Of a stretch of 1,248 nt of DNA, positions 1 to 1,248 are shown piece by piece. Numbering within the stretch: position 1 is the first letter of the stretch; each line of letters opens with the position of its first letter. Source of the DNA: Escherichia coli (GTDB taxonomy: Bacteria; Pseudomonadota; Gammaproteobacteria; Enterobacterales; Enterobacteriaceae); the NCBI RefSeq assembly GCF_003334335.1, contig NZ_QOWQ01000115.1; one strand, 5' to 3'. Under the pieces are notes generated by a model. It saw only the letters and a program-made list of their open reading frames with translations. It did no database searches and was not told where the DNA came from. The position numbers and the translations under genes were made by a program.

Positions 1-40
1 CTGCGATCAGCAGGATCAGCGCGCCGACTATCTGTAACAT
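1..40 (-). CDS. yeeR: Start of a downstream co-directional gene with a hydrophobic N-terminus (putative inner-membrane protein); 3'-partial, only 13 codons in window
   Basis: ATG at 38-40 (minus) preceded by GGAG with a 5-nt spacer. Translation MLQIVGALILLIA is strongly hydrophobic (transmembrane-like or signal-like). It lies 120 bp downstream of the flu stop on the same strand; in E. coli K-12 the gene after flu in CP4-44 is yeeR, a predicted membrane protein. The symbol is assigned by synteny and memory, not by a verified sequence match. Confidence 0.4.
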   Translation of the reverse strand, partial: MLQIVGALILLIA

Positions 41-49: not shown

Positions 50-115
50 GTGATGAATATCATGTTATTGTTAATGCCAGCGAATGTGGCGTTGAATATC
101 CGTTGCGCCGGTCCG

Positions 116-140
116 GGTCCCGATCATGATGACCGGGACC
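116..140. other. GC-rich inverted repeat / stem-loop in the flu 3' intergenic region (perfect 7-bp stem ggtcccg/cgggacc, 11-nt loop containing the palindrome ATCATGAT)
   Basis: Positions 116-122 ggtcccg are the exact reverse complement of 134-140 cgggacc; the loop 123-133 is atcatgatgac. It begins 21 nt past the flu stop codon. No U/T tract follows on either strand, so it is not a canonical intrinsic terminator; it may be a 3' stabilising hairpin or a partial terminator. Confidence 0.35.
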
Positions 141-160
141 ACAGAGAGGCGATGGTTCTG

Positions 161-1248
161 TCAGAAGGTCACATTCAGCGTGGCCTGACCGTTATAGCCT
201 TCAGCGCTGCTGCCGCTGACGCTGTGGACATAACCTGCCTGAACGCCCAGGGTGATATTTTCCCGGACACGGGCTTCCAGTCCGGCCTGCAGGTCCAGTG
301 ACGTACCATTCTGTGACGGTGAGAACGTCATGTTACTGCCGGCTGCGGCTGTACCCATGCTCATGTCCCCCCGGGAGCTGAAGGTGCGGATAACAGAAGG
401 CTGTACCCACCAGTTCACCGGCAGTTCACGCACACTGTGTTTGGCACTGCCGCGCAGGGTGTCACGGGATGAGGTGCCTTTACCAAAGTTCATATCGTGG
501 TGGCTGCCCAGACGGAAGCCGGCACGCACATGTTGTGCACTGCCATGCCCGAACTTCACATAACTGGCGTTATCCTGGCCGTCATCCAGGGAGAGTCCCT
601 GCCAGGTGTACTGCAGTTGCGGCTCCAGCATCAGATTGTCAGTGATACTGAAGGGCAGACCGGTTTCCAGCGAACCCAGCCAGCCCCAGCCCCGGACGCG
701 GAAGTCGTTATTGTCCGATGAGGCTTTCATGCTGTGGCGGGTTCCCTGGGCCACAATGTCAGCCCACAGGCCGGAGGCGTTGTGTATCAGATTCAGGTAT
801 CCGCCCAGGCTGCCGGCATCATCCCGGACCGTGCCGGCACGGGAGCCGTCATCATCCTTAACATCAACGGAAGAATGGCCAGCAGCACCATATACCCCCG
901 CGGTCACAGACATACCGGCAACCTCTGTTCTGAGCAGGTCACCCTCCAGACGGACGAAGCCATAGCTGCCGCTGCTTTCCGGCGTGGCTCCACGGGCAAT
1001 ACCGCCGTTGTTATCGTGACCGAGATGACCGCCCTGAATGCTGAGACGGACGCTGTTATTTTCACCGCTTACACCGGTCTGATGGCTGCGGGAGCCTGCC
1101 AGAATCCGGTCATAGTCCATTGCCTGTGTCAGCATGGAGGCGTATAGGGGGACTTCAGCACGATAACGTTCTTCACTGCGCAGATACCAGCTCTCATCAC
1201 TGTCCCGGTTGAGGGAGTAGTTAAAGGCACCGGCCTGCAGCTTATTCC
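161..1248 (-). CDS. flu: Antigen 43-type (AIDA-I family, type Va) self-associating autotransporter, C-terminal beta-domain/translocator; 5'-partial, gene continues beyond the right window edge
   Basis: Minus-strand frame is open from 1246 to the TGA stop at 161-163 (checked codon by codon from 1136 to 1246: no stops). The Met at 1135 has no purine-rich RBS upstream (cccctatacgcctcc-ATG), so it is internal. The protein ends ...SGSSAEGYNGQATLNVTF with a terminal Phe, the classic outer-membrane beta-barrel C-terminal signature. Amphipathic beta-strand-like segments are present (YGFVRLEG, GWGWLGSLETGLPFSI, HVRAGFRLGS, WWVQPSVIRTFS, ITLGVQAGYVHSV). The sequence matches my recollection of E. coli Ag43 (flu); allele or paralog cannot be assigned without alignment. 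Confidence 0.8.
   Translation of the reverse strand, partial: NKLQAGAFNYSLNRDSDESWYLRSEERYRAEVPLYASMLTQAMDYDRILAGSRSHQTGVSGENNSVRLSIQGGHLGHDNNGGIARGATPESSGSYGFVRLEGDLLRTEVAGMSVTAGVYGAAGHSSVDVKDDDGSRAGTVRDDAGSLGGYLNLIHNASGLWADIVAQGTRHSMKASSDNNDFRVRGWGWLGSLETGLPFSITDNLMLEPQLQYTWQGLSLDDGQDNASYVKFGHGSAQHVRAGFRLGSHHDMNFGKGTSSRDTLRGSAKHSVRELPVNWWVQPSVIRTFSSRGDMSMGTAAAGSNMTFSPSQNGTSLDLQAGLEARVRENITLGVQAGYVHSVSGSSAEGYNGQATLNVTF

Follow-up and report, generated by a model that had tools for sequence, protein, structure and literature searches.

The window analysed here, a stretch of 1,248 nucleotides on an Escherichia coli contig (NZ_QOWQ01000115.1), closes with a segment of 155 nucleotides (nt 1094-1248) whose translation precedes an autotransporter barrel, and the question raised by the locus is what this segment contributes to the protein that it encodes. 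An initial annotation, made from the letters of the sequence, took it for a charged, helix-prone linker that threads the lumen of a type Va barrel, and from its position suggested that the window spans the boundary between the linker and the barrel. The reading favoured here, with a probability of about 0.9, is that the flagged bases encode residues 679-729 of Antigen 43 (Ag43), at the junction of the surface-exposed autochaperone (AC) with the outer-membrane translocator, and that they carry in succession the last strand and the capping hairpin of the AC (aa 1-28), an unusually short tether with a YR motif (aa 23-30) and the alpha-helical linker (aa 31-50). The identity of the gene, the domain boundaries, the predicted secondary structure, the conservation and the homology to solved structures are established in turn below.

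The gene and its surroundings

Judged by its sequence, the window covers the 3' end of E. coli agn43, which lies on the minus strand and encodes Ag43 (Flu/Cah), a protein of 1039 aa. The list of open reading frames and its translation give a single long frame on that strand, which enters at the window edge and is closed by a stop codon at nt 161-163, and translation from nt 1246 down to nt 1094 returns exactly the residues given in the initial annotation. Genes annotated as agn43 ('autotransporter adhesin Ag43') match the window with 99.5% DNA identity in many complete E. coli genomes, and a copy of agn43 is present in 4,145 of the 5,426 complete genomes. Residue 1 of the window (nt 1246-1244) corresponds to residue 679 of Ag43 and F361 to residue 1039; residue numbers are those of the window unless they are marked as Ag43 numbers. 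The flagged segment aligns without gaps across 34-39 homologues, with the exception of one indel hot spot. This nearly gap-free alignment, together with the occurrence of agn43 in over 4,000 complete E. coli genomes, shows that the flagged feature is not a chance pattern.

Membership of the Ag43/Cah family can be judged with the NCBIfam equivalog NF033177 (auto_Ag43), which has a cut-off of 1200 bits for the whole protein. As only the last 361 residues are in the window, the near-identical full-length allele of strain GE3 was tested in its place; this allele has 1039 residues, shares 99.5% DNA identity with the window and differs from it at 2 residues in the window part. The GE3 allele scores 1902.2 bits and thus falls within the family, and the 488-aa fragment termed beta43 scores 968.6 bits on its own, over profile positions 504-948 of 948. 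A signal peptide and a passenger are found outside the window, the GE3 allele starts with MKRHLNTSYRLVWNH, which we take to be the extended signal peptide region of Ag43, and the remaining passenger matches the Ag43 equivalog. An extended signal peptide region has been described for Ag43, as has cleavage of the protein at residues 551/552 (PMC10058404).

The neighbourhood of agn43 in GE3 is prophage-like, with a GTPase family protein upstream and with a hypothetical protein, an IrmA family protein and DUF905 and DUF932 proteins downstream. Within the window, nt 1-40 on the minus strand are the start of the downstream gene, the product of which is annotated in GE3 as an 838-residue hypothetical protein (WP_001315618.1) that begins MLQIVGALILLIA and has an N-terminus that looks hydrophobic. 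Scanning the window for promoters and terminators gave a single weak promoter-like site (nt 34-63) and no intrinsic terminator downstream of agn43. At nt 116-140, 21 nt downstream of the agn43 stop codon, there is an imperfect palindrome (GGTCCCGATCAT / ATGACCGGGACC); its 12-nt arms are 92% complementary and separated by a spacer of 1 nt, no run of T follows it and it was not called a terminator.

The barrel and the linker helix

A search of 1.84 billion representative proteins retrieved 729 relatives. Two alignments were used, A1 comprising the query and 38 full-coverage homologues (39 sequences, 361 aa), and A2 comprising the beta43 query and 33 homologues extended by 130 residues upstream (34 sequences, 488 aa). 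The beta43 query is a composite, taken from the GE3 allele for residues 552-678 of Ag43 and from the window for residues 679-1039; in the window part the alleles depart from each other at the 2 residues already mentioned. AlphaFold2 gave a mean pLDDT of 90.4 and a pTM of 0.87 on A1, and a mean pLDDT of 87.7 on A2, with identical elements in the second model plus beta-rich structure immediately upstream. Both models contain strands at aa 3-5, 8-14 and 20-28, followed by one alpha-helix, a coil and a 12-stranded barrel (Table 1).

Table 1. Features predicted in the 3' end of agn43, in the order in which they are translated
Feature	Nucleotides	Residues (window)	Residues (Ag43)	Strand	Basis
Short beta-strand, end of the last AC beta-helix rung	1232-1240	3-5	681-683	minus	DSSP in both models; inside the AC_1 and Pertactin matches
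Capping beta-hairpin of the AC	1163-1225	8-28	686-706	minus	Both models, block pLDDT at least 90; conservation; PDB constructs
Variable-length tether site, AC cap to linker helix, RSEER	1166-1180	23-27		minus	Alignment; minimal in Ag43
Conserved YR motif at the strand-to-helix transition, YRA	1157-1165	28-30		minus	Y28 and R29 each in 91% of 34 homologues
Alpha-helical linker of the translocator, EVPLYASMLTQAMDYDRILA	1097-1156	31-50	709-728	minus	Both models; probable location in the pore from homology and topology
Coil, C-terminus of the helix to barrel strand 1	1055-1096	51-64		minus	Block pLDDT 63 / 57; mostly outside the flagged range
12-stranded autotransporter beta-barrel, ending in a C-terminal Phe	164-1054	65-361		minus	PF03797, DSSP, Foldseek

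It is apparent that the protein is a type Va autotransporter, as the initial annotation had supposed. Pfam PF03797 (Autotransporter beta-domain) matches with E = 3.2e-21 from aa 86 onwards, with the flagged segment upstream of the match, and DSSP assigns twelve long strands between aa 65 and aa 360 in both models. The top matches in a Foldseek search are all type Va barrels, namely EspP 3SLJ (pre-cleavage), AIDA-I 4MEE, EstA 3KVN, Hbp 3AEH, BrkA 3QQ2 and NalP 1UYN. The protein ends ...NVTF before the stop codon and so has the C-terminal aromatic residue of a beta-signal; the final aligned column of A1 holds F or W, and 3 homologues carry one extra residue (H or R) after it.

Within the barrel a beta-hairpin is predicted in extracellular loop 5 (nt 322-363, aa 295-308), with a first strand of 4 residues (aa 295-298). 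A loop-5 hairpin with a 4-residue first strand has been reported for AIDA-I, where it was proposed to be a template for passenger folding (PMC5895577). Strands 8 and 9 are joined by a connection of 28 residues (nt 419-502, aa 249-276), which has a pLDDT below 50 at aa 254-263 and which by strand parity should be a periplasmic turn, since loop 5 joins strands 9 and 10. An insertion confined to the closest Ag43-like homologues accounts for approximately 17 residues of this connection.

The linker helix is the only helix of at least 4 residues in both models (block pLDDT 91-96), and it stands immediately N-terminal to the barrel as the alpha-helical linker of a type Va autotransporter does. The start of the predicted alpha-helix and beta-core of Ag43 has been placed at residue 710, with confirmation by PsiPred (PMC5802855), and the translocator has been given as 330 residues, i.e. 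with a start at 710 (PMC10058404); the modelled start at Ag43 residue 709 agrees with the published one. Chou-Fasman values, calculated from the single sequence, indicate a modest helix propensity for these residues (helix 1.07-1.14 vs strand ~1.0), and in the profile search the helix aligns with the linker region of AIDA-I 4MEE. The most conserved helix positions in A2 are L34/Y35, 38, A42, Y45 and L49, and this spacing of 3-4 residues puts them on one face, as is expected for a helix that packs against a wall. The coil that follows, 14 residues long, has no regular structure but for one 3-residue helical turn and by topology would be on the periplasmic side.

Homology to 4MEE and 3SLJ, together with membrane topology, suggests that the helix occupies the barrel pore. 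A 12-stranded barrel has its two ends in the periplasm, whereas the AC is outside the cell; the chain is therefore obliged to pass through the membrane somewhere from aa 28 to aa 65, an interval whose sole regular element is the 20-residue helix (~30 Å). It could be argued that in the mature protein the helix lies outside the pore, in the periplasm or outside the cell, or that an extended segment fills the pore instead, given that the location in the pore is drawn from relatives and topology and that the segment is expected to be extended during translocation. In the hairpin model of type Va secretion the linker segment is indeed extended, not helical, whilst translocation proceeds. Such an arrangement is nonetheless improbable, as in solved type Va translocators the linker sits within the pore or runs through it (PMC10058404, PMC9289746), the two top Foldseek folds are those of pre-cleavage EspP and AIDA-I, and, with the AC 2 residues upstream of the helix and barrel strand 1 14 residues downstream, no other segment has the length to cross.

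The probable autochaperone cap and the tether

From the models and from homology we conclude that aa 1-28 are probably the end of the extracellular AC domain and that aa 8-28 are its capping hairpin. The predicted hairpin is made up of the strands FNYSLNR and WYLRSEERY on either side of an acidic turn of 5 residues (DSDES, aa 15-19), with the beta-rich AC upstream of it, and a beta-hairpin cap has been described for AC structures of the Ag43 family (PMC8993888). Two Pfam profiles run into the flagged segment, AC_1 (PF18883), which matches over its whole model (positions 1-114 of 114, E = 9.5e-19) as far as Ag43 residue 690 (aa 12), and Pertactin (PF03212), which matches over positions 8-120 of 121 (E = 8.6e-12) and ends at Ag43 residue 701 (aa 23). 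A full-length profile match just before the translocator is what is expected of a type 1 autochaperone.

The cap is the best-conserved part of the flagged segment, with G6, Y10, L12, W20 and L22 invariant in 34/34 sequences of A2. A conserved aromatic residue is reportedly found in the autochaperone of Hbp. When Ag43 552-729 was searched against the PDB sequences it matched 7KOH and 7KO9 (E ~1e-35), crystal constructs of passenger plus AC from the Ag43 family, the chains of which end in ...LQAGAFNYTLNRDSDEDWYLRSE (...WYLRSE), a stretch that aligns by sequence with aa 3-25. Also matched in this search were 3ML3 and 5KE1, structures of the IcsA autochaperone in which the same motif reads AGSYDYRL...WYLTSQ.

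It is very unlikely that all 51 residues form one charged alpha-helical linker threading the barrel lumen, as was first proposed. The composition that prompted this idea is real, with D/E/K/R making up 27% of aa 1-51 vs 17% of aa 52-361, the three 20-residue windows richest in charge anywhere in the translation beginning at aa 12-14, and A/E/L/M/Q/K/R accounting for 51% of aa 1-51, directly upstream of the Pfam barrel match. The charge is located mainly in the hairpin turn (NRDSDES) and at the junction (RSEERYRAE), with the helix itself 15% charged. Against one long helix, aa 3-28 are high-confidence beta-strands in both models, this strand part falls inside the AC_1 and Pertactin domains and is contained in the crystallised extracellular constructs of the Ag43 family and IcsA, with a beta-hairpin cap described (PMC8993888), and a helix of 51 residues would be ~75 Å long, far beyond the need of the barrel. 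The initial annotation was therefore correct in placing a helix before the barrel and in finding a helix-prone stretch, which is limited to the last 20 residues (nt 1156-1097), but it made the helix 2.5 times as long as it is and overlooked the autochaperone cap. The strands that replace the first part of that helix are not barrel strands either, as the first of these starts at aa 65, and with the AC end, the helix and the barrel all found, the window does span the passenger/translocator junction.

There is a negligible chance that the flagged bases carry some other feature, be it a gene in another frame or on the other strand or a structured RNA, with the Ag43 frame incidental. Two ORFs do overlap them, one of 30 aa on the plus strand (nt 1120-1212) and one of 33 aa on the minus strand (nt 1129-1230), but both were rejected as being short and mechanical. 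The protein sequence of the Ag43 frame is conserved across distant homologues, RefSeq annotates agn43 only at the flagged region, and neither strand has an Rfam match at E <= 1.

At the junction of AC and translocator favoured here, the tether of Ag43 is close to the shortest in its family. Between the invariant WYL and the conserved YR the homologues have 3-58 residues with a median of 21 (34 sequences, A2), vs 5 in Ag43, and the tether in homologues is composed of 22% Pro, 12% Ser and 12% Gly. The YR motif that follows aligns with YRP of AIDA-I in the profile alignment with 4MEE.

The tether is also where alleles differ. The window and its closest complete-genome allele (GE3) are separated by 7 nt differences, all in nt 1142-1171 (minus strand, aa 26-35), at the tether and just 3' of it in the coding direction, and 5 of the 7, both amino-acid changes included, are in or beside the tether patch aa 23-27, with ER at aa 26-27 in the window allele and NA in the GE3 allele. 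No exact copy of the flagged 155 nt was found in the 5,426 complete E. coli genomes, where the best match is 98.7%, and a 1037-residue representative (P0003) carries an identical SEERYRAE. The cluster at nt 1142-1171 could be a small mosaic or recombination patch.

A speculative and rather doubtful extension is that so near-minimal a tether would keep the AC hairpin rigidly docked at the mouth of the barrel, and that tether length could tune the retention of cleaved alpha43 on the cell. It is equally speculative that the junction could be a module boundary at which AC/passenger and translocator cassettes recombine, a thought suggested by the allele-specific cluster of substitutions (7 nt within 30 nt) at the short tether.

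Secretion and comparison with known systems

The type Va pathway has been reviewed (PMC9289746) and studied (PMC5895577, PMC11451606), and this body of work includes the assembly of Ag43-beta in vitro by TAM as well. If Ag43 follows the pathway, the barrel would be inserted by BAM, and the AC, ending in the hairpin encoded here, would be the first part to fold at the cell surface, where it would template the vectorial folding of the beta-helix, its seeding probably occurring by strand augmentation with the loop-5 hairpin of the barrel. When export has ended, the residues still inside the pore would form the helix, which would plug the barrel and tether the AC. The roles of the AC in folding and of the helix in plugging are thus probable ones, assigned by analogy with the family.

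Ag43 is a textbook self-associating autotransporter and the biology of the junction has already been described for Ag43 and its relatives; the finding is real but ordinary and matters little beyond correct annotation. Published Ag43 boundaries (cleavage at 551/552, the AC, a linker from ~710 and a translocator of 330 residues) are already used in the design of surface-display constructs. What is useful is that the segment is now divided precisely, at the level of residues and nucleotides, into an AC hairpin, a tether and a helix, in correction of the single helix first pictured.

Single-sequence searches of PDB sequences with the window protein found no experimental structure of the Ag43 translocator; phmmer gave no match even at E = 10, and the 39-sequence profile was needed to reach AIDA-I 4MEE. 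This is the closest solved translocator and has served as the template for that of Ag43 (PMC10058404). In the A1 profile search the whole query, the flagged segment included, aligns with 4MEE (E = 4.5e-31), the alignment covering AGAYDY..WYL, YRPE, the linker and the barrel, and in Foldseek the match has E = 2e-14 and a TM-score of 0.77 (target-normalised) at an identity of only ~16%. AIDA-I differs in its tether, with 11 residues (TSHLPTSDTRQ) between WYL and YR where Ag43 has 5, and it is without the long insertion that Ag43 has between barrel strands 8 and 9.

In EspP 3SLJ, NalP 1UYN, EstA 3KVN, Hbp 3AEH and BrkA 3QQ2, likewise, an N-terminal segment lies in the pore of a 12-stranded barrel. 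The profiles of EspP, Hbp and BrkA, however, align only from profile position ~52-69 onward, and at the level of sequence the hairpin, YR motif and helix of the Ag43/AIDA type are not common to them. The alignment to solved translocators that the initial annotation had put forward as a check extends over the whole query for AIDA-I but not for these three. Cleavage of EspP and Hbp also takes place within the barrel; that of Ag43 occurs far upstream, at 551/552 (PMC10058404).

On the extracellular side, the Ag43-family constructs 7KOH and 7KO9 contain a QAGAFNY.LNRDSDE.WYLRSE motif at their C-terminal end, in alignment with the window. The AC fold of IcsA 3ML3 ends, as does that of Ag43, with an AG.Y.Y.L ... 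WYL.S motif, although the similarity between the two is low (E = 7.5e-5) and the hairpin turn of IcsA is 5 residues longer.
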